In this document: positions 5,440 to 64,000 of the stretch, piece by piece | Layout of the letters: every line of letters begins with the position of its first letter | Numbering within the stretch: position 1 is the stretch's first letter | Source: Chiloscyllium plagiosum | Lineage: Eukaryota | Length of the DNA: 64,000 nucleotides | Direction of reading: 5' to 3' | Assembly (NCBI RefSeq): GCF_004010195.1 | Contig: NC_057749.1 | Span: 18,454,488 to 18,518,487, forward strand | The notes under the pieces: generated by a model | Seen by the model: the letters and a program-made list of their open reading frames with translations, nothing else | Told to the model about the DNA's origin: nothing | Databases searched by the model: none | Program-made: the position numbers and the translations under genes

Positions 5440-6520
5440 CCAGTGGATGGTCACAAGGGTCGGTGTTGGGTCCACTGCTTTTCATCATTTATATAAATGA
5501 TTTGGAATGTGAAGTTAGGAGGTATAGTTAGCAAGTTTACCGATGACACCAAAATTGGAGGTGTAGTGGACAGCAAAGAAGGATACCTCAGATTACAACG
5601 GGATCTTGATCAGATAGGCCAAGGAGTGGCAGATTGAGTTTAATTTAGATAAATGCGAGGTGCTACATTTTGGAAAAGCAAATCAGGGCAGGACTTGCAC
5701 ACTTAATGGTAAGGTCCTAGGGAGTGTTGCTGAACAAAGAGACCTTGGAGTGCAGGTTCATAGTTCCTTGAAAGTGAAGTCGCAGGTAGATAGGATAGTG
5801 AAGAAGGCGTTTGGTATGCTTTCCTTTATTGGTCAGAGCATTGAGTATAGGATATGGAAGGTCATGTTTCTGCTCTGCAGGACATTGGTTAGGCCACTTT
5901 TGTGTGCAATTCCCGTCTCCCTCCTGTAGGAAGAACGTTGTGAACTTTGAAAGGGTTCAGAAAAGATTATAAGGATGTTGCCAGGGTTGGAGGGTTTGAG
6001 TTATAGGGAGAGGCTGAATAGGCTGGGGCTGTTTTCCCTGGAACGGGAACCTCATGAGGGGCATGGATAAGGTAAGTATACGCGATCTTTCCCCTGGACT
6101 AGAGGGCATAGGTTTAGGGTGAGAGGGGAAAAATTTAAAAGTGACCTAAGGAGCAACGTTTTCATGCAGAGGGCAGTGTGTCTATGGAATGAGCTTCCAG
6201 AGGAAGTGGTGGAGGCTGGTACAATTGTAACATTTAAAAGGCATTTGGATGTGTATATGAGTAGGCAGGGTTTAGAGGGAAGGCAGAAGTGGGTACTGTA
6301 GATGCTGGAGATCAGAGTCAAGATTAGAGTGGTGCTGGAAAAGCACAGCAGATCAGGCAGCATCTGAGGAGCAGGAAAATAGACATTCCAGGCAATAGCC
6401 CTTCAGCAACGAATGGTATGGGCTAAGTGCTGGCAAATGGGACTAGATTAATTCAGGATATCTGGGTGGCATGAATGAGTTGGATGGAAGGGTGTGTTTC
6501 TGTGCTGTACATCTCTATGA
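5440..6520 (+). mobile_element. CR1 LINE, RT C-terminal half + 3' UTR
   Basis: QGSVLGPLLF.IYINDL and KFTDDTK motifs, ORFs 5660-5929 and 6119-6301. Confidence 0.9.
6281..6416 (-). mobile_element. PLE terminal fragment inserted in the CR1 3' UTR, degenerate hammerhead
   Basis: Splits tttagaggga|tatggg of the CR1 tail. Similar to 14161-14290 and 13219-13345. Confidence 0.8.
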
Positions 6521-10169: not shown

Positions 10170-10515
10170 AAGTCATAGAGTCTCGGTCTAACCGACTCTA
10201 TGTCTCGGTCTCGGTCTGTCCATGCCAACCAGATATCCCAACCCAATCTAGTCCCACCTGCCAGCACCCAGCCCGTATCTCTCCAAACCCTTCCTATTCA
10301 TATACTCATCCAAATGCCTCTTAAATGTTGCAATTGTACCAGCCTCCACCACATCCTCTGGCAGCTCATTCCATACACGTACCACCCTCTGCGTGAAAAA
10401 GTTGCCCCTTAGGTCTCTTTTATATCTTTCCCCTCACCCTAAACCTATGCCCTCTAGTGCTAGATTCCCCGACCCCAGGGAAAAGACTTTGCCTATTTAT
10501 CCTATCCATGCCCTT
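10170..10515 (-). mobile_element. CR1 3' end
   Basis: Reverse complement of the CR1 ORF2 end and 3' UTR (GMDRINRQSLFPGVGESSTRGHR). Confidence 0.9.
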
Positions 10516-10879
10516 TTCTATTTTGTGGATATCTGTGAAGCTATGATTATTGACAAGGTGAGTGCTGAGAGGGTGTTTTCGAAGTCCAGGACCAGAGGAC
10601 AAAATCTCAGAATAAGGAGTTGTTCATGTAAAACAGAGAAGAACTTTTTTTTCTCTGAGGGTTTTTTGAATCTGTGGAATTCTTTACCACAGAGGATCAT
10701 TAAGGCAGGGTCATTAAGTATTCTCAAGAGATAGATTTTTAAACATCAGTTAGGGAACTAAGCATTACAGGGATATGGCAGGAAAGTAGAATTTGGGCCA
10801 ACATTCTATTTGCCTTCCTTATTATCCGGTGAACTTAAATTCTGGCTTTTCCTGAGTTTTGTATGGCACCCCCACATTC

Positions 10880-11340
10880 CTCTCTAGTCAATGTCAACCC
10901 CAAGGATGTTGAAATTGGAGAATTCAACAATGATAATGCCATTGAATGTCAACACAGCTCTCTTGTGTTGGAGACGGTCATTGCTTGGCACATGTTTGAC
11001 ATGAACGTTTGCCCAAGCATTTGCGCATATGTTGTTTCAGTATCTGAGGAATTGCAAATGGTGCTAAACATCAGCAAACATTTTCATGTCTGACCTCATG
11101 ATAGAGGGAAGGTCATTGATGAAGCAGCTGAAGATGGTACCCTGAGGAACTGCGTCAGAAATATCCTGAAATTGACATGACTGACCTCTAGCCACCACAA
11201 CCACCACCTTATGGGTCAGGTATGACTGCAACCAGAAAGGAATTTTTCCCGTGATACCCACTGACTTCAATTTTGTTCTTGGTTCTTGATGTCACACTCA
11301 GTCAAGTGCAGCCTTCATGTCAAGGATAGTAACCTTCATC
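10880..11340 (-). mobile_element. LINE RT fragment, same family as the 36440-38850 body
   Basis: ORF 11064-11270 VPQGTIFSCFINDLPS..MFAD matches 37900-37990. Confidence 0.8.
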
Positions 11341-13218
11341 ACTTTATCTCCTCGATCACCATCCTGCTCACCTCCCACTCACTGTCCTTCTTGTCAACTT
11401 TCTCACTGTCTTCCTCCCAACTCTCAAGCTGTCACTGCCTCACCCATCTTCACACTTGCTGTACCCCTTCCTGAGTGGTGGTAGGTCAGCCCACAAGCTG
11501 GGTAGCAAGTGGAGCAGTGAGTTAAATGGAGATTGGGGCAATGAGTTGCAGGCAGCAGGTGATACAGAAGAATCAAAATGCAAGTGGGAGGCAGCAGGTG
11601 TACAGTGGTGACGGAAACAGCAACAACTCCTTTCTTTGTGCGATGGTAGAAGAGAGAAGGCCACCTTGCTGATCTTTGAGTGGTCCCATTCTCTCCCTAG
11701 TTACCCTTTTGTCCTTAATATATTTGTAAAAACCACTAAAGAAATCCGAATTTAGAATAACTTAACTATTGGAAAACCTAACTGACCCGATACAGCATCT
11801 TAACTCATTAACTGTTTCATTATAGTAACATCCCATAAACACACCCCTTGGCAAAAAGGTAAATTCAAACACCGACTCTTACAGACAGGAGTGAACAGTT
11901 TCCAGAAATAGATTTCAGAAGGAAGTCAGAGGAATTCTTTTCTGAAGCTTGCAACTCTCTTGACACTCACATCTCATGACTGCTACAACTAAAACAAACT
12001 AGAAAAAACCTGAACTGGAAGAATTGGCCGACTCCCCTTCCATTTTTAACTAGATGCTTTGGCACCTCTGCCTTTACAACCTCTCTTAAAAAAAACCAAG
12101 GACAAAATAACATTTTTAAAGTGACAACATTGTCACAGCATTTCATTCTTGCTCTTTTATCCATAGCCCTGGAGTAGATTCCTTTTCCTGAGTACTCAAA
12201 AATAAAATCCTTTTTGACTGTTACTATACAATCTGCTTCAGGCCCCCTAACAGGTAATGCAGTCCTGGTCACCATAACTTGCGCTTTTCAAAAAAAAATA
12301 CTCCTCGTTTCCCATCTGGCTTCTTTCACCACAATCGAGATCTGGTTGCCAGTGGCAAATTTCACCTTATCTATCCAGTCAAGCTCCCTGATCATTTTGA
12401 GCACCCCTATTCAATCTTTCCTTAATTTTCTTTCTTTGAATTGTTCTCCAGCCTGTTACCCTTGGTTTAAAATCACTGTCGCAACAAATGAGCCAGGAGT
12501 TTTTAACCACAACATATTCTGATGGATGTGTTAATGATTTTTGTTCTTAAGTAGCAACTGACTAAAGGTCAATTGATGCTCTACTGCGTGCTGCAGGAAA
12601 GAGGGAAGTGTGAGATCCCTCGAGAGGTATGCGAGCTGACTGCCGAGGTAGATCCTGTGCCTGACAGCACTGATTTCCTTAGCTTGCTTCATATCAATCC
12701 AATCTAGATCAACAGCCAATTGAATGATGTAATTGGTCATAAATGGTAGCAATTAATTAAAGTTAAACAGAAAATTCTCAGGCCCAGAGAAATAGCTTGA
12801 AATTCCAACTATGACTGACCCTCTGCAAAGGTCACAGGATTGTTTCCAGCATTGGTGGCAAAGAACGCAAAAGGGTATCTCAAGATCATCTGCTCTGGGT
12901 CAAGTTGAGTCTTTTTAGAAGCAGCGAGTAAAGAATTTGGATTTACGTCCCAATCTCACTAAAGTTGTCTCTTGCCACTCTCACAACAAAAGGTAATAGC
13001 AGTAGCTTGCGAGTAAGTAGCTCATTTAGGAAAACGTTGAGACAAATTTTGACACTGAACAGAGGATGGAGTTGTGAGTACCAAGGACCATGAAAAGAGG
13101 AAAGTTGGAAGGAAGTTGAGGAAGCAGTGTAAGAGATCCCCAAGGAAACAGTGACCATAACATGGTAGAATTTAGCATTCAGTTCGAGAATGAGAATCTT
13201 GGATTAGAAACAACTGTG

Positions 13219-13452
13219 AGGAGAAAGTGAGGTCTGCAGATGCTGGAGATCAAAGTTGAAACTTTATTGCTGGAACAGCACAGCAGGTCAGGCAGCATCC
13301 AGGGAACAGGAGATTCGACGTTTCGGGCACAGGCCCTTCTTCAGGCCCTTCACAGGCCATTCCTGAAGAAGGGCCTGTGCCCGAAACGTCGAATCTCCTG
13401 TTCCCTGGATGCTGCCTGACCTGCTGTGCTGTTCCAGCAATAAAGTTTCAAT
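13219..13452. mobile_element. Palindromic PLE mini-insertion (234 bp) with 15-bp TSD
   Basis: Perfect 90-bp inverted arms 13256-13345 and 13362-13451. ttagaaacaactgtg occurs at 13204-13218 and 13453-13467. Confidence 0.92.
13359..13394 (+). ncRNA. Minimal type I hammerhead ribozyme motif
   Basis: AUUC-CUGAAGA-A-GGGC(CUGU)GCCC-GAAAC-GUC^GAAU, stems I and II pair. Predicted cleavage after 13390. Confidence 0.75.
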
Positions 13453-14160
13453 TTAGAAACAACTGTGCCAAAGATAATTACATAATGATAAGATCAGAGT
13501 TGGCTGAGGAGGACTGAGGAACAAGTTTAGCAGAAAAGACAGTTGATGAACAAAAGCAGACGAGGAGAAAACAAAAGACATTCCAGGGAGGAAGGAGGAT
13601 TTTAGGAAGGAGATAAACTGACCAAAGGACATTAATTCAGTATCAAATTGAAAGAAAAATTATACAATATAGCAAAGATTAGAGATAAATCAGAGGAATG
13701 TGAAATATTTAAAGGCTAACAAAAGATTGCAAACAATAATTAAGAGTGAAAAAATAAACAGTGCAAACTAAAATAATATAAGAACTGATGGTAGGAGCTT
13801 CTTTAAATATACAACAAGGAAAAGAAAGGACAAAGAAAACAGGCTCCTGACAGAGCAAGGTTAAGGAAATAATCGATAGCCAGGAAATGTCATAGGATTT
13901 GTAAAAGATTCTTTGTATCAATCTCTACCATAAAGGGCACTAATAGCATTCCAAAGATGCTAAATGTTCAAGTGGCCTGAGTGGGGAGGAAGTAAATAGT
14001 TAATTATCATTAGAGAAAATTAATGGAGCTGAAGGCCTATAAATCCCTGGACCTGATGGGATGTGCCTAGGATATTAAAAGAAGCAGTTACTGAGATGTA
14101 CTGGTAAGGTACCACACATTGGGCATCTTCATAAGATGCCCATTGCGGGTAATCTATTAG

Positions 14161-14290
14161 GAGAAAGTAAGGACTGCAGATGCTGGAGATCAGAGTCAAG
14201 AGTGTGGTGCTGGAAAAGCACAGCCAGTCAGACAACCTCCAAGGAGCAGGAAAGTCGACATTTTGGGCATAAGCCCTTCATCAGGAAGGG
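14161..14290 (-). mobile_element. PLE terminal fragment with 7-bp TSD, decayed hammerhead
   Basis: ctattag at 14154-14160 and 14291-14297. Minus strand reads CUGAUGA-A-GGGC(UUAU)GCCC-AAAAU-GUC. Confidence 0.85.
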
Positions 14291-17431: not shown

Positions 17432-17608
17432 TAAGCTGGTACAATTGCAACATTTAAAAAGCATTTGGATGGGTTTATGAATAGGAAGGGTTTGGAGGGA
17501 TATGGGCCAGGTGCTGGCAGGTGGGACTAGATTGGGTTGGGATATCTGGTCAGCATGGACGGGTTGAACCGAAGGGTCTGTTTCTGTGCTGTACATCTCT
17601 ATGACTCT
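17432..17608 (+). mobile_element. Young CR1 3' end
   Basis: Closely matches 53910-54078 and the reverse complement of 63338-63481. ctaagt flanks both sides (possible TSD). Confidence 0.9.
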
Positions 17609-18185
17609 AAGTCTCACACACTTCTAATTGGACTGAAGTTGGAAGGCTCGTTAAGCTGGGGGTTGATGCCACAGACTCTCTTGTGCTAACCTGTTACCTG
17701 CATTGAATATTTAACAAAGGTTAAGTTTCAACATGTTACTTTCCTCTCTGAGGAGCTTGTAGGAAAGGGACAGGTTTACTAGAGATCTCTTGTTCTATTT
17801 GTCAAAAAAAATTGAATACAAATTGTTTTTTGCATCTTATGAAGAATTAAATGTGATGCAGCAACTGCACTGAAATTGTTCAACTCACTGTTTCAACTTG
17901 AGTTTTGAGCATGGCAGAATGCAAAGTCACATATCCACAGATGCTAGCCTCCTGCAAGCAAATCCTCTTAGTAAATCTCTAATTCTCTAAACACCTCGCT
18001 TATTCACGAACATGGGTGGAGCAAACAGCTTTATGGTTAGTTTTTTTTAAATTAAACTGGAAGTTATCTGGCGAATATTTCATTTTCAATGGGAAAAGAT
18101 ACCAAACTACAAATAAGATGCAGAATGAATAGAGGACTAGACAGGTTAATCCCATACTTTAGAAAACTCACAAATAGTATGTATA

Positions 18186-20494: not shown

Positions 20495-22470
20495 TCCACA
20501 GAGTCATGCAGCACAGAAACAAACACTTCAGTCCAACTCATCCATGCCAACCAAGTTTCCCAAACTAAATTCATTCCACTTGCCTGCATTTGGCCCATAT
20601 CCTTTAAACCTTTCCTATTTATGTACCCATCCAAATGTCTTTTAAAAGTAACTGTACTTGCACCTACCACTTCCTCTGGCAGTTCATTCCACACACAAAC
20701 CACCTTGTTTGTGAAAATGTTGCCCCTCAGGTCCCTTTCAAATCTTTCTCCTAAAAAATATGCCCCCTACTTTTGAGCTGCCCCACCCTAGGCAATTGAC
20801 CGTTACTGTTCATCTTATCTATGCCCTTCATGATTTTATAAACGTCTATAAGGTCCAACTCAACCTTGTATACTTTGGTGATAAAAGTCCCAGTCTATCC
20901 TGATAAATCTTTTCTGAACCCTCTATTTAATAATATCCTTTCGAGGGCAGGGCAACCAGACCTGTACACAGTTCTCCAAATGTGGTCTCACCAATGTACA
21001 ACCTTAACATAATGTCCCAACTCCTAAACTCAGTAGTCTAAGCAATGAAGGCAAGCATGCTAAACATGTTCTTAACCACCCTGTCTACATGTGATGCAAC
21101 TTCCAAAGAACTATATGCCTGAACTCCTTGGTTTCTTTGTTTGACAGTGCTACCCAGGGCTCTACCATTAACTGTATAAGTCTTACCCTTGTTGGTTTTT
21201 CCAAAATGCAATACCTCACATTTATATCCAAATTAAACTCCATCTGCCACTGCTCAGTCCATTGGCCTGATTGATCAAGATTCCTTTATAATCTTCACTG
21301 CTGACAATGCCACCAATTTTAGTGTCATCTGCAAACCTAGTAACCATGCCTCCTAAATTCTCATCCAAATCGTTTATATAAATTACAAACAAAAGTGGAC
21401 CCAACACCAATCTCTGCAGAACACGATTGGTTACAGGCCTCCAGTTCACCACCAACTTCTGCCTCCTACTGTCAAGCCAATTTAATATCCATTTGGCAAG
21501 CTTTCCCTGAATCCATGTGATCTAACTTTACTAATTAGTTTACCATATGGAACCCTGTCAAAGGCTTAGTCCATGTAGAAAATGTCTACTGCTCTGTCCT
21601 CCTCAATCTTTTTGGTTATGTCCTCAATCAAGTTAGTAAGGCATGACTTCCCATGCACAAAGCCATGCTGACTATCCCTAATCAGACCTTGCCTCCCCAA
21701 ATGTATGTAAATCTTATCTCTCAGAATCTCCTCCATGAACTCCAAACTCTCATATCTAACATCAGCCAGCCTCCTGTCCTCGGACACCTCGCCCAAGGCT
21801 GCAAATGATGCAAATATCTCTCTTAGGTCTCCCGCAATTTCTTCCCTAACTTCTCACAATGCCCTGGGATATATTTGATCAGATCATGAAGATTTATCCA
21901 CCTTGGATCTTTAAGACATGCAGTGCTTCCTTTTACTTAATGTGGACTGTCTTCAAGACCTCCGTATTTATTTTCCCAAGTTCCCTAACCTCCATTTCTT
22001 ACTCTACAGTAGAAACTGCTGCTAAATATTTGTTTATTATCTCTCATCTCCTGTGGTTCTACACATAGACAACCTCATTGATCTTTAAGGGGCCCTATTT
22101 TCTCCTAGTTGCTTTTTCGCTCTTCATGTATTTGTAGAATCTCTTTGGATTATCTTTAGCCTTGGAAGATAAGGTTATCTCATATTCCCTTTTTGCCCTC
22201 CTGATTTCCTTGCATCCCTTGTACTCTTCAAGAGATTCACTTGATCGCCATTGTTTCTACCAAAATGACTCCTTAGCCTTGATCAGAGCCTCAATATTTT
22301 TATTCATCCATTGTTCCCTCTTCTTAGCAACCTTACTTTTCACTCTTACAGGAACATAATGCCTCTGAACTCTCGTGATCTCACTTTTGAAAGCGTCCCA
22401 GTTGCCAGTCATCCCTTTACCTGAGGACAGTTTACTCCAATCAACTCTCGAAAGTTCCTTGGAAGTTTCA
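20495..22470 (-). mobile_element. CR1 LINE ORF2 remnant + 3' UTR
   Basis: ORFs 20482-20703, 21222-21455 (LGPLLFVIYINDL..FADDTK) and 21566-21796 (QHGF..GKSCLTNL). Confidence 0.9.
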
Positions 22471-36000: not shown

Positions 36001-36435
36001 CCTCGATGGCAGGAGATCAGGAGACCAAAACTATACACAGTACCCAAGAATAGGTCTCACCCAAGAACTCTACAACTGCAGCAAGAAATCATTACTTCTC
36101 AGTCAAATCTCTTTACAATGAAGGCCAACATAATTTACCTTTCTAATTGATTGCTGAACTTACAAGCTAACTTTTATTTGAACAAGGATATCCAAATCCC
36201 TTTGGACACAGGCACTTTTAAGCCCCTTATCATTTAGTAAACATTGTACCTTTGTATTCTTTCGCAAGGTGAATAATTTCATACTTCCTTCCATTAGGTT
36301 CTATCTGCCATGTTCTAACTCATTCACTTAGTCTGTCCAAGACCTCCTGAAACTTCCTGACATCCTGCTCACAACTTACATTTCCACCCAGGTCAGTTCA
36401 TCAGCAAATTTGGAAATCTTACATTGGCCCTCATA
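36000..36435 (-). mobile_element. Old CR1 fragment hosting the 36440-38850 insertion
   Basis: Inverted RT-region sequence (tcatcagcaaatttgg...ctcat) appears to resume as atccaaatc at about 38852. Confidence 0.65.
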
Positions 36436-36439
36436 TGCA

Positions 36440-38850
36440 GGGAGGCAATGGCCCAGTGTTGTTATCACTAGACACTGTTCTGCAGACCCGGGTTCGAATC
36501 CCCCCCCCCCCCCATGGCGGATGGTGGAATTTGAATTTAAAAAAACTCTGGAATTAGGAATCTACTGATGACCATGAAACCATTGTTGGATAAACCCGTC
36601 TGGTTCACTAATGTCCTTCAGGAAAGGAAATCTGCCATCTTCACCGAGTCTGGCCTACATCTGACTACAGATTCACAGCAGTGTGGTTGACTGTCAGTTG
36701 CCCTCTGAAATGGCCTGGCTAGCCATTCAGTGTACCAGTCATTACAAAGTCTCAAAAGAAATGCAACCAGATGAATCACCTGGCATCGAGCTAGGCACCG
36801 GAAAAGGAAACCACCTGGTTACTGCATATAGCCCTCTCTCGGCTGATGAATCAGTTCTCCTCAATGTTGAACAACACTTGGAGGAAGCAGTGGAGGTGGA
36901 AAAATCTACTCTGGGCAGAGGATTTCAATATCCACTGCTAGGTTCAGCAGCACTACTACTGATGGAACTAGTCTGGTCCTAAAGGGTAAATGGTGAGGGA
37001 ACCAACAAGAAAGAAAACATACTTGACCTCATCCTTATCAATAAGCTGGCTGCAGATACATCTGTCCATGAAAGCATCCATAACAGTGACCACCGCACAG
37101 TCCCAACTTCACATTGAGAAAAATCTCCATTGTGTTGGGTGGCACTATCACCGTGCTAAAAGGGAAAGAGCAGATCTAGCAACTCAAGACCAGGCATCCA
37201 TAAGATGTTGAGGGCCATCAATAGCGGAAGGATTGCACATTGTGTGACCTCATATATCCCCCGCTCGCCCAATACCATCAAGCCTGGTTCAATGGACAGT
37301 GCAGGGAGGCATGGCAGTAGTAGCATTAGGCATGCCTAAAAATGAGATGTCAACCTGCTTAAGTGCTTGCATGCCAAACAGCATAAGCAGCAAATGATCC
37401 CACAGCCAACAGATCAGATCTAACCTCTGCAGTCCTGCCACATCTAGTCATTAATGGTAGCACAGTTGAACAATGCACTGGAGTAGGAGGCTCCACAAAC
37501 ATCCCCATCCTAATGATGGAAGAGCCCAGCACATCAGTGCAAAAGATAAGGCTGAAGCATGCACAGCAATCTTCAGCCAGAAGTGCCGAGTGGATGATCC
37601 ATCTCGGCCTCCTCCAGTGGTCCCCAATGTTACAGGTATCAGTCTCAGCCAATTCGATTCACACCACGAGATATGAAGAAATGATTGGAGACACTGGATA
37701 CTGCAAAGCTATGGACCTTGACAACATTCCGGCAATAGGACTGAAGTCTTGTGCTCCAGAACCTGCTGCTCCCCTAGCTGGGGAGTCCAGTACAGTCACA
37801 ACACTGGCATTCACCCGACAATGTGGAAAATTTTTGCTTTGTCCCATACGCAAAAAGCAGAACAAATTCAACCCAGCCAATTGTTGCCCCATCTCTGCAG
37901 GAGTTCCTCAGTACTGTCTTAGGCCCAACTATCTTTAGCTGCTTCATTAATGACCCTCCCTCCAACATAAGGTGAAGGTATTCACCAATGATTGCACAAT
38001 GCTCAGCACCATTTGCAATTCCTCAGATACTGAAGCAGTCCATGTTCAAATGTGACAAGATCTGGACAGTATCCAGGCTTGGGCTGACAAGTGGCAAGTT
38101 ACCTGCCACACATATGTCACGTTATGAACCCCACCCAATAAGAGACAATTTAACCATTGCCCCATGACATTCAGTGGTATCACCATCATTGAATCCCCCA
38201 CTACCAACATCCTGGGGGTTACCATCAAACAGAAACTCAACTGGACTTGTCACACAAACACACTGACTACAAGAGCAGGTCAGAGGCCAGGAATATTGCG
38301 GCAAGTAACTCACCTACTGACTCCCCAAAGCCTCTCCATCATCTGTAAGGCATAGGTCAGGAGTGTGATGGAATACTCCCCACTTGCCTGGATGGGTGCA
38401 GCTCCAACAGCACTCAAGAAGCTTGACAGTATCGAGGACAAAGCAGCCCGCTTGACTGGCACTAAATCCACAAATACCCACTCCCTCCACCACCAACACT
38501 CAGCAGCAGTGTACTATCTCCTAGATGCACTACAGAAGTTCACCCAAGACCTCAGACAGCACCTTCCAAACCCACTTCCATCTAGGAGGCTAATGATAAC
38601 AAATGTATGGGAGTGCCACCACCTTCAAGCCACTTACCATCCTGACTTGGAAATATATCACTGTTCCTTCAGTGTCACTGGGTCAGAAGCTTGGAATTCC
38701 CTCCCTAAGGGTATGTGGGTCAACGCACAGCAGGTGGACTGCAACGATTCAAAAAGGTAGCTCACCCACACCTTCTCAAGGGCAACTTTGGCCAGGCAAT
38801 AACTGCTGGCCAGCCAGCAACGTCCACACCCACAAATTAATGTTAAAAAG
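36440..38850 (+). mobile_element. tRNA-headed, internally deleted LINE (APE endonuclease + RT remnants)
   Basis: A/B boxes (tggcccagtg; ggttcgaatcc at 36491), SINE core, then AYSPLSADES, VREPTR..LDLIL..SDHRTV, DNIPAI.LK.CAPE.AAPLA, NPAN..PIS, AGVPQ, FINDPPS, then the SINE-shared 3' tail. Confidence 0.8.
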
Positions 38851-38899
38851 TATCCAAATCATGGAGAGAGATTGTTAGCAGTCAGAACCTGACCTACGA

Positions 38900-47139: not shown

Positions 47140-47300
47140 TTTTTAGTTATTTGTGGGATGTGGGCATTGCTGGCTGGCCAGCATATATTGTCCATCCCTC
47201 GTTGCCCTTGAGAAGGTGGTGGTCAGCTACCTTCTTGAACCATTGCAGTCCCCCTGCTGTGGGTCGACCCCCAGTGTCATTAAGGAAGGAATTCTAGGAG
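47140..47300 (-). mobile_element. 3' tail of the 36440-38850 LINE family
   Basis: Reverse complement resembles 38730-38835 (gcccttgagaaggtggtgg..cttgaaccattgcagtcc). Confidence 0.75.
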
Positions 47301-48611: not shown

Positions 48612-48844
48612 TATATTCTGAGATCAGTGTGAGAAGTCATTGGTAACCAAGAAAAGTTTGTCCTCTCAAAAAGGAATTCATTGCAGTAATTTGTGTCCTG
48701 CCAGCTACTCTGTACAATTAAAGCTGATTTGCATGATTAAATCTGAGAGATTCAGATTAGCAGTTATACAGGCACACAAGAACAAACACAGGTCATTTAA
48801 GATCTTGAGCCTGTGCCACAATTCAGAACCATCTGCTTAAGGCA

Positions 48845-49160
48845 GCTGGGAGAATTTAAATACAATTAATTAATAAATCTGGAAGAAATGCTAGTCTCAT
48901 TACTAATCATGAAACAACCAGATTGTCAGTAAAATCCACCTATTCACGAATTTCAAATCTGCCATCCTTACCTGGTCTGGCTTATCTGAGATTCCAGACC
49001 TGTAGCAATGTGGTCGATTGTTAGCTGCCTCTGGAATTACCAAATGAGAAAGGAAAAAGCACCATGGGTTTAGTTAAATGACACGGACTGCAGTGATTCA
49101 GGAAGCTGGCTTACCACCACTACCTCAAAGGTGATAAATGCTAGCCAGTAATTCTCATGT
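48845..49160 (+). mobile_element. Intermediate derivative of the tRNA-headed family
   Basis: Core aatctgccatccttacctggtctggc...gcaatgtggtcga joined to a longer LINE tail ggactgcagtgattcaggaagctggcttaccaccac. Confidence 0.7.
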
Positions 49161-53564: not shown

Positions 53565-54078
53565 GCATAGTGAAGAAGACGTTTGGTATACTTTCCTTTA
53601 TTGGTCAGAGTATTGAGTACAGGAGTTGGGAGGTCATGTTGCGGCTGTACAAGATATTGGTTAGGCCACTGTTGGAATATTGCATGCAATTCTGGTCTCC
53701 TTCCTATGGGAAAGATGTTGTGAAACTTGAAAGGGTTCAGAAAAGATTTACAAGGATGNNNNNNNNNNNNNNNNNNNNNNNNNNNNNNNNNNNNNNNNNN
53801 NNNNNNNNNNNNNNNNNNNNNNNNNNNNNNNNNNNNNNNNNNNNNNNNNNNNNNNNNNNNNNNNNNNNNNNNNNNNNNNNNNNNNNNNNNNNNNNNNNNN
53901 NNNNNNNNNCAACATTTAAGAGGCATTTGGATGGGTATATGAATAGGAAGGGTTTGGAGTGATATGGGCTGGGTGCTGGCGGGTGGGACTAGATTGGGTT
54001 GGGATATCTGGTCGGTATGGACGGGTTGGACCGAAGGGTCTGTTTCCATGCTGTACATCTCTATGACTCTATGACTCT
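53565..54078 (+). mobile_element. Young CR1 3' end spanning a gap
   Basis: ORF 53570-53962 and ctatgactctatgactct tail. Confidence 0.9.
53759..53909. other. Assembly gap (151 N)
   Basis: Run of N inside a CR1. Confidence 1.
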
Positions 54079-54229
54079 CAGTTCATTTGCCTTACTGGTC
54101 ATACTCCTTGCATTAAAATAAATACACTTCAGACCGAGGGTCATGATACCCATTGATACTAGCAACATAAGGCACGAAGAATAATGAGGTCCTGCAAATG
54201 GAGTCAGGGACTAGGGAGGAGGTTGAAAA

Positions 54230-58297: not shown

Positions 58298-58659
58298 AGA
58301 GAGTCATACAACACAGTGACAGACCCTTTGGTCCAACTTGTCTGTGCTCACCAGACATCCCAATCCGACCCAGTCCTATTTACCAGCACATGCTCCATAT
58401 CCCTCGAAACCCTCCTATTCATGTACCCATCCAGATGCCTTTGAAATGTTGTAGTCATACCCACCTCCACTACTTCCTCTGGAAGCTTGTTTCCTACATG
58501 TATCACCCTCTGTGTGAAAAAGTTACTCCTCAGGTCCTTGTTAAATCTTTTCCCTCTCACCTTATGCCATCTAGTTTTGGACTCCCCTACCCCTGGGAAA
58601 AGACCTTGGCTCTTTGCCCTATCTGTGCCCCTCATCATTTCATACACCTCTATAAGGTC
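58298..58659 (-). mobile_element. CR1 3' end, 5'-truncated
   Basis: ORF 58348-58746 DLIEVYEMMRG...NFFTQRV. Confidence 0.9.
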
Positions 58660-58733
58660 AAACCTCCTCATGAAAGAGAACGAGGAGAGCGAGCGATCGA
58701 TAAAGAACTGCCCCAGTTCTTCACCATCCCAGC
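58660..58733 (+). pseudogene. 74-bp duplicate of part of the ZNF609 exon (60117-60189)
   Basis: Direct alignment shows 3 substitutions and 1 inserted base. No flanking splice sites were copied. Confidence 0.93.
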
Positions 58734-62971: not shown

Positions 62972-63047
62972 GAATGGTAAGAAAAACCAACTCTTTTTCC
63001 CACTTGCACGTTTAGCGATGCTAATAAAAGTCAGTGGTGTTTACTTC

Positions 63048-64000
63048 TTAGAGTCATAGAGATGTACAGCACGGATACAGACCCTTCAGATCAACTCATC
63101 CATGCCAATCAGATATCCTAAATTAATCTAATCCAATTTGCCAGCACTTGGCCCATATCCCTCCAAACCCTTCCTATTCATATACCCATCTTGATGCCTT
63201 TTAAATGCTGTAATTGTACCAGACTCCACCACTTCCTCTGACAGCTCATTCCATACACACACCATCCTCTGCGTGAAAAAGCTGCCCCCTAGATTCCTTT
63301 TAAATTTTTCCCCTCTCACCCTAAACCTGTGCCTCTACTTAGAGTCATAGAGATGTACAGCATGGAAACAGACCTTTCGGTCCAACCTGTCCATGCCGAC
63401 CAGATATCCCAACCCAATCTAGTCCTACCTGCCAGCACCTGGCCCATATCCCTCCAAACCCTTCCTATTCATATACCCATCNNNNNNNNNNNNNNNNNNN
63501 NNNNNNNNNNNNNNNNNNNNNNNNNNNNNNNNNNNNNNNNNNNNNNNNNNNNNNNNNNNNNNNNNNNNNNNNNNNNNNNNNNNNNNNNNNNNNNNNNNNN
63601 NNNNNNNNNNNNNNNNNNNNNNNNNNNNNNNNNNNNNNNNNNNNNNNNNNNNNNNNNNNNNNNNNNNNNNNNNNNNNNNNNNNNNNNNNNNNNNNNNNNN
63701 NNNNNNNNNNNNNNNNNNNNNNNNNNNNNNNNNNNNNNGTACTCAGTACTCTGACCAATAAGGGAAAGCATACCAAATGCCTCCTTCACTATCCTATCTA
63801 CCTGCGACTCCACTTTCAAGGAGCTATGAACCTGCACTCCAAGGTCTCTTTGTTCAGCAACACTCCATAGGACCTTACCATTAAGTGTATAAGTCCTGCT
63901 AAGATTTGCTTTTCCAAAATGCAGCACCTCACATTTCTCCAAATTAAACTTCATCTGCCACTTCTCAGCCCATTGGTCCATCTGGTCAGTATTCCATTGT
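63048..64000 (-). mobile_element. Two head-to-tail CR1 3' ends (63048-63337; 63338-64000)
   Basis: Both start cttagagtcatagagatgtacagc on the + strand. ORFs 63128-63319 and 63469-63981. Confidence 0.9.
63482..63738. other. Assembly gap (257 N)
   Basis: Run of N inside a CR1. Confidence 1.

Follow-up and report, generated by a model that had tools for sequence, protein, structure and literature searches.

A tRNA-type head and SINE core at the 5' end of a coding LINE family, elasmobranch Zenon, and a decayed copy of it in Chiloscyllium plagiosum

Introduction

LINEs and SINEs are generally separated in reviews by the polymerase that transcribes them, LINEs using Pol II and SINEs Pol III, and SINEs are held to be unable to encode protein (PMC5786205; PMC10886601). 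The described system closest to the element analyzed here is the Zenon family of elasmobranchs, for which the supplement of PMC13343379 gives seven consensus sequences from five species, sharks and a ray: RhiTyp_Zenon-1, CarCar_Zenon-1, ScyCan_Zenon-1, HypSab_Zenon-1 and SquAca_Zenon-1/2/3, from white shark, whale shark, catshark, spurdog (three) and stingray. According to its methods, they were made by extending RT seeds in each genome separately. Zenons are already stated there to be single-ORF elements without ORF1, and their tree does not follow that of the hosts. Near-full-length copies are numerous (2313 in white shark, 1419 in whale shark, 612 in stingray), and intact ORFs are very rare among them (0/2313, 1/1419, 3/612 and 1/294; Supplementary Table 3, in which the entry 675852 for SquAca_Zenon-1 looks like a spreadsheet conversion error). 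Our element has in common with this family the 5' sequence including a linker, the endonuclease (EN) and RT, the lack of an ORF1 and, less clearly, the A-rich tail; the words "tRNA" and "promoter" have 0 occurrences each in the main text and supplement of that study.

In sharks, the DeuSINEs SacSINE1 and LmeSINE1 likewise combine a tRNA head, a conserved core and a LINE-type tail, but they are described as non-coding elements that borrow only a tail, with no mention of a head-sharing LINE in the account given (PMC5499810). The tail partner of DeuSINEs has been assigned to L2-2_CM, with a tail similarity of 78.6% measured for CmiSINE, or to a CR1-4_DR-like element (PMC3747384, table), and the function of the conserved core is a long-standing question with three models (PMC5499810). 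The elephant shark contains 218,294 SacSINE1-like insertions (PMC5499810), and no Zenon was recovered from it (PMC13343379).

Heads or promoters taken from small RNAs are known from other retroelements too. The crocodilian Tx1-Mar elements (PMC4494074) are also LINE families with a small-RNA-derived head common to partner SINEs; by contrast, they belong to another clade and have U1/U2 heads without an internal promoter, whereas the shark head consists of A and B boxes followed by a long SINE core. Persaeus, derived from lepidopteran Zenon by internal deletion (PMC6740152), and the bipartite RTE and Vingi derivatives such as Bov-A and Bov-tA (PMC5786205) are short non-autonomous elements in which both ends of a single-ORF LINE are joined, their breakpoints showing microhomology; Persaeus, as described, has neither tRNA homology nor Pol III boxes (PMC6740152), and the tRNA head of Bov-tA was acquired by the short derivative and is not part of the coding LINE (PMC5786205). 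Cassandra, Helenus and Ajax (TRIMp3; PMC10886601) are alike in being non-SINE retroelements with a Pol III promoter from a small RNA or SINE, but they are non-coding LTR elements of 0.3-1.3 kb, and Pol III processivity has been argued to limit such elements to ~1.3 kb or less (PMC10886601). A literature search found no description of a tRNA-headed Zenon or of a tRNA-headed coding LINE family, and the tRNA-type head on the coding elasmobranch Zenon, unlike its single-ORF state, is apparently unremarked in print; it may have been noted before in Repbase or Dfam.

Results

Structure of the element

The window, the stretch of 64,000 nt of C. plagiosum that was analyzed as a whole (NC_057749.1, positions 18,454,488 to 18,518,487), contains at 36440-38849 (+) what is, judged from its sequence, a single decayed and internally deleted copy of a Zenon LINE of the elasmobranch lineage, CR1 group (Table 1). 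With ~2.4 kb of the ~3.3 kb of the family, ~880 nt are missing with respect to the published elasmobranch Zenon, and yet the copy retains the full span. It is a dead copy, deleted twice: at 36805/36806 roughly the first 100 codons of the EN are gone, and at ~37896 the RT core lacks ~120 codons.

Table 1. Features of the Zenon copy and of its insertion site (positions in the window)
Feature	Positions	Strand	Remarks
Host canonical CR1 remnant, RT region, split by the insertion	36190-36434	-	aligns to CR1 copy 21150-21500
Candidate eroded TSD, left copy	36433-36439	+	5/7 match to 38850-38856; weak
tRNA-derived head	36440-36513	+	A box 36449-36459, B box at 36492, poly-C after B box
SINE core common to free SINEs	36514-36733	+	five SINE copies of the window, 73-78%
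LINE-specific linker	36734-36805 (~70 nt)	+	not in the window's SINEs; start of Arg-rich N-terminal extension of EN frame
APE endonuclease, C-terminal half	36806-37135	+	profile and Pfam matches
EN-RT tether and start of RT, frameshifted	37136-37896	+	profile and tblastn matches
Remaining RT, thumb, C-terminal domain	37891-38790	+	profile matches; closest proteins 55-75% identical
Short 3' UTR and A-rich end	38791-38849	+	common to tails of the window's SINEs
Short host CR1 resumption	38852-38882	-	predicted 9-mer at predicted position

The features named in the initial annotation, namely a SINE-type head with A and B boxes (at 36449 and 36492, as in SINE2 elements) running into a core, EN remnants followed by RT remnants and a 3' tail, and no visible ORF1, were all recovered. 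The EN remnant is recognized by a weak Pfam match (Exo_endo_phos_2, E 0.034) and by a profile match at 37001-37117 (iE 3e-4), the RT and C-terminal remnants at 37276-38757 by profile matches with iE down to 3e-54. These are the parts of the single APE endonuclease-RT frame of a Zenon, in normal order and frameshifted, and no remnant of ORF1 was found in the copy. At 2.4 kb with EN and RT remnants here, and 3.3 kb in the family, the element lies outside the 100-700 nt, non-coding range of SINEs, so that SINE membership is ruled out and both structure and 5' sequence identify it as an elasmobranch Zenon. The 3' end is an A run of just 5 nt (38845-38849) after an AT-rich stretch. A second RT fragment of the Zenon family, headless and internally deleted, lies at 10850-11400 (-), 80% alike over 110 nt.

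The head is tRNA-like by virtue of its boxes only, because ARAGORN at default settings called no tRNA in it and Rfam gave nothing above the gathering score; nor did head, core, linker or tails fold better than shuffled sequences (z -0.84 to +1.49). The final base of the A box is altered with respect to the family variant found at 36459 in contigs of public sequencing runs, and the spacer between the boxes has lost ~21-23 nt compared with four of the window's SINE copies, leaving this copy itself with a damaged A box and a shortened spacer. Immediately 3' of the B box is a 14-nt poly-C run (36500-36513), peculiar to this copy, where the family has a short mixed motif.

A break of the host CR1 on the left and its resumption on the right had been proposed as signs of a single insertion. 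On the left, the alignment to the CR1 copy at 21150-21500 stops at ctcat (36434), and none of 300 shuffles equals it. On the right the proposal held in part: the 9-mer expected at 38852, which has 3 occurrences in 128,000 positions, is in place, but the free local alignment of the ~30-nt continuation is non-significant (95, 290 and 39 of 300 shuffles as good, for three comparators), position alone being significant. The pair 36433-36439/38850-38856 may be one eroded single TSD. Three contigs of organism C, ~94-95% alike, cover both flanks and the EN deletion, one of them running across the 36805/36806 join, which indicates that both the insertion and the EN deletion are old.

The head-to-LINE junction in elasmobranch Zenons

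The comparison with the published consensuses covers the first 400 nt of each (PMC13343379). In all seven elasmobranch Zenon consensuses the 5' end consists of this A/B-box head followed by the SINE core and the linker, which is shortened in two of those from spurdog. RhiTyp_Zenon-1 contains exact words of the window and is, by eye, collinear with the locus for ~365 nt, and the locus is closest by eye to the whale-shark Zenon type. Public sequencing runs from three organisms, aligned to the element at 80% likeness, agree with this: within 36440-36805 the majority variants of the contigs carry, by eye, the whale-shark consensus base at 7/7 listed positions, and the family variant at 36764, in the linker, was found in 47, 43 and 7 contigs of the three runs, which represent other linker copies. 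At this position the summed depth in run X2 was ~1,300, against 14 in the right flank, depth not being a copy number; the entire element is highly repeated in all three organisms. In the Zenon consensuses of hagfish (two) and coelacanth (one) no such head is present, the coelacanth cell being in low-confidence lower case, and six B-box 10-mers gave 6 matches, in elasmobranch Zenons only, among the first-400-nt cells of the supplement (at least 910 rows). These sequences establish the head-core-linker junction as a family-wide structure of the elasmobranch Zenon. The LINE lineage with a tRNA-derived 5' end that the initial annotation had suspected is thus borne out by 7/7 consensuses and by a linker that is multi-copy in three runs; the junction is not unique to the locus, and its inspection by eye revealed no separate TSD pair.

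Searches for the structure in other material found little. A head and core profile found nothing in 96 related loci (best E 3.3), and ARAGORN at relaxed settings gave only noise on the loci, which was discounted; the exact junction pattern had 0 occurrences in metagenome contigs, a linker plus EN protein query 0/12 candidates, and the full-length shark ORF protein search 1 match among 488 candidates, 33% identical. With the RT piece of the window, 0/20 viral contigs were confirmed; 80 metagenome loci held no shark DNA (best segments 31-42% to shark-type queries), and an Atlas search gave generic EN-RT clusters only.

Absence of ORF1 and placement of the RT

The initial annotation had considered the lineage possibly single-ORF and had allowed that the missing ORF1 could be secondary to the deletions of this copy. 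The former is right and the latter is not: the absence is primary and family-wide, because the elasmobranch Zenon consensuses are only 2886-3314 nt long, the linker runs directly into EN motif I in 2/7 of them (those whose first 400 nt reach it), and the single-ORF state is already published (PMC13343379). The nearest related locus with DNA, L001, has one frame of 990 codons, no other forward frame of 120 codons, and 949 nt upstream of it without a long forward frame; in its long 5' region are two direct copies of ~59 nt (381-495), and L001 has no likeness to the shark head or core.

In a FastTree RT tree the RT of the window falls with shark-type fragments; the four shark-type rows form one group (SH 100) within a group of 43 rows (SH 98) that includes L001 and stands apart from two-ORF loci such as L006, L008 and L009. 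After removal of three near-duplicates the tree had 91 rows, of which two were short and less than half filled, with no named Zenon references among them, and the alignment omitted 16 loci with only weak RT matches. Among the closest proteins of the RT part, a named source was given for 3 of 10 examined, all of them sharks (whale shark, sawshark).

Relation to the SINEs of the window

Over the aligned columns, the likeness of head and core (36440 to ~36733) to the five free SINEs has scores of 111-161, against shuffle maxima of 34-41. The tails of 4/5 headed SINE copies match the LINE 3' end above the shuffle maximum, and a headless copy at 47149-47294 (-), copy F, is 80% alike to it. The breakpoints between core and tail differ among the SINE copies, and similar head-to-tail joints occur in contigs of the runs. 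Differing breakpoints fit a repeated internal deletion of the headed LINE, similar to the origin of Persaeus, a history that an exchange of SINE tails could mimic. The head of copy E (48830-49150, +) looks older and, by eye, spurdog-like, and its LINE-derived 3' part is longer than that of copies A-D; the span of copy F is approximately that of this 3' part. The core is presumably the Deu domain of SacSINE1, and the SINE of the window presumably SacSINE1 itself; if so, the SINE would be older and more widespread than the headed LINE, and acquisition of the head by the LINE, in an elasmobranch ancestor, would be the likelier direction.

Promoter elements, 5' ends and T4+ runs

On tRNA-type promoters Pol III starts just upstream of the A box, and the first base of a full-length retrotransposon copy corresponds to the start of its RNA. 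Judged by eye, the A box matches TRGCNNAGTGG in 7/7 elasmobranch Zenon consensuses and the B box is intact in 6/7, while the spacer between them differs among species; the consensuses begin ~5-10 nt upstream of the A box, and the copy at 36440 begins 9 nt upstream of it. On the sense strand, two Zenon remnants have 1 T4+ run in 2,963 nt and three CR1 remnants nearby in the window have 11 in 1,931 nt, a deficit with a composition-weighted p of 0.012 in a small, post hoc test; against shuffles of the element itself it is non-significant (p 0.053 mononucleotide, 0.20 dinucleotide). L001, a headless relative, has 6.5-8 T4+ runs per kb, and L044, a headless CR1-group locus outside the Zenon clade with similar T content, has 0 in 1,801 nt. 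From one raw RNA run, poly-A single-cell data of which 2% was read, came 986 reads; none of them reached 99% likeness to the copy, and no site stood out as the start of many molecules. The reads are not counted as evidence, because they derive from other copies of the family and oligo-dT priming at A tails may account for their strand excess.

Discussion

The structure described above probably dates back to an ancestor common to sharks and rays, in which a Zenon master copy would have acquired its 5' UTR, the tRNA head and core, from a resident SINE. Template switching in the course of reverse transcription is the probable mechanism, and the headed chimera would then have become the dominant lineage. 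The head would most likely act as an internal promoter: TFIIIC would bind the A and B boxes, Pol III would initiate ~9 nt before the A box, at the point where full-length copies have their 5' ends, and would pass the T4-poor template to the A-rich end. Translation of this uncapped RNA would need to proceed independently of cap scanning, and perhaps with no in-frame AUG; as in LINEs in general, the RNA would be copied into the genome by target-primed reverse transcription via its 3' tail. An internal deletion of the headed LINE RNA would yield a ready-made SINE with head, core and tail, and would account for the differing core-to-tail breakpoints of the window's SINEs.

On balance we lean towards Pol III as the polymerase that drives the headed Zenon, a preference drawn from the 5' ends, the conserved boxes and the T4+ runs, scarce but not decisive. 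The main competing reading accepts the same family structure but has the full-length RNA made by Pol II, from a promoter within the head or core or by host read-through trimmed at the head, the Pol III boxes being passengers, a processing or chromatin signal, or refreshed from SINEs. It is a serious contender, although we give it less credit: LINEs are regarded as Pol II units (PMC10886601; PMC5786205), the 5' ends of lepidopteran Zenon have neither tRNA homology nor Pol III boxes (PMC6740152), the U1/U2 heads of crocodilian Tx1 have no internal promoter (PMC4494074), a capped RNA removes the translation problem, and exchange with the very numerous SINEs could by itself conserve the boxes. A Pol II origin sits less easily with 5' ends that coincide with the predicted Pol III start, with both boxes kept across five species, and with the T4+ deficit relative to the adjacent CR1s.

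The direction of the exchange may also be turned round, head and core being the ancestral 5' UTR of the LINE and the Deu-type SINEs descending from the LINE, so that the SINE body is a LINE 5' UTR. LINE 5' UTRs do serve as SINE bodies in RTE and Vingi (PMC5786205), and the SINEs of the window, with their several breakpoints, resemble internal deletions. We consider this improbable, since hagfish and coelacanth Zenons, in the consensuses available, are headless, the elephant shark is rich in SacSINE1-like elements and no Zenon was recovered there, and the head and core profile came back empty from the related loci. The idea extends a hypothesis reportedly due to Kojima. Finally, with both element types plentiful and the right-hand CR1 resumption short, an accident of this locus might be suspected, either separate insertions of a SINE and a 5'-truncated LINE next to each other or a chimera formed once by template switching. 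It is refuted by a junction fixed in all consensuses of five species and a linker that recurs in three runs, and we give it next to no weight; a one-off chimera of the U6/L1 type was rejected on the same ground, as its junction would be copy-specific.

The proposal has its difficulty in translation: Pol III RNAs are uncapped, and the head contains several upstream AUGs. The proposed processivity limit of Pol III, ~1.3 kb or less (PMC10886601), also speaks against it. In the 36440 copy, 7 upstream AUGs precede 36761, and the linker AUG at 36761 seems out of the EN frame in the family; it was rejected as the start of the EN frame, since, to judge from the consensus, it is in frame in this copy only through its deletion. 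In the stingray consensus, read by eye, the conserved linker AUG lies in a different frame from EN motif I, and the EN frame is extended, after a stop where the core ends, by an Arg-rich stretch that contains no AUG; this frame reading comes from a single automated consensus, in which bases may be missing, and upstream the frame varies among species. The Arg-rich stretch is retained in the 36440 copy. Taken as a whole, the proposal of a coding retrotransposon made by Pol III from end to end, translated from uncapped RNA without an in-frame AUG, kept since the ancestor of sharks and rays and re-seeding a major SINE family by internal deletion is possible but put forward tentatively.

An abundant vertebrate LINE with a conserved type-2 Pol III promoter at every visible consensus start offers a direct test of the polymerase rule. 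If it is a coding LINE made by Pol III and translated independently of a cap, the division of LINEs and SINEs by polymerase fails and the conserved SINE core acquires a role open to testing, as a signal for translation or packaging; as the core is located in the 5' UTR of a coding LINE, a retrotransposition reporter can be used to assay what it does. Capture of a head would also be a possible route by which a LINE whose origin is uncertain, and may be horizontal, obtains a promoter functional in its host, and these shark SINEs would have their likely partner reassigned.

The window has two further features of note. A near-perfect palindrome of 208 nt (13250-13457, 91% self-complementary) adjoins a repeat common to 14159-14285 and 6287-6408. 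A second, commoner family of short repeats, presumably an HE1-like SINE, is found at 2034-2500, 10216-10515, 17435-17618, 53910-54080, 58300-58666 and 63044-63481, with young members up to 94% alike.
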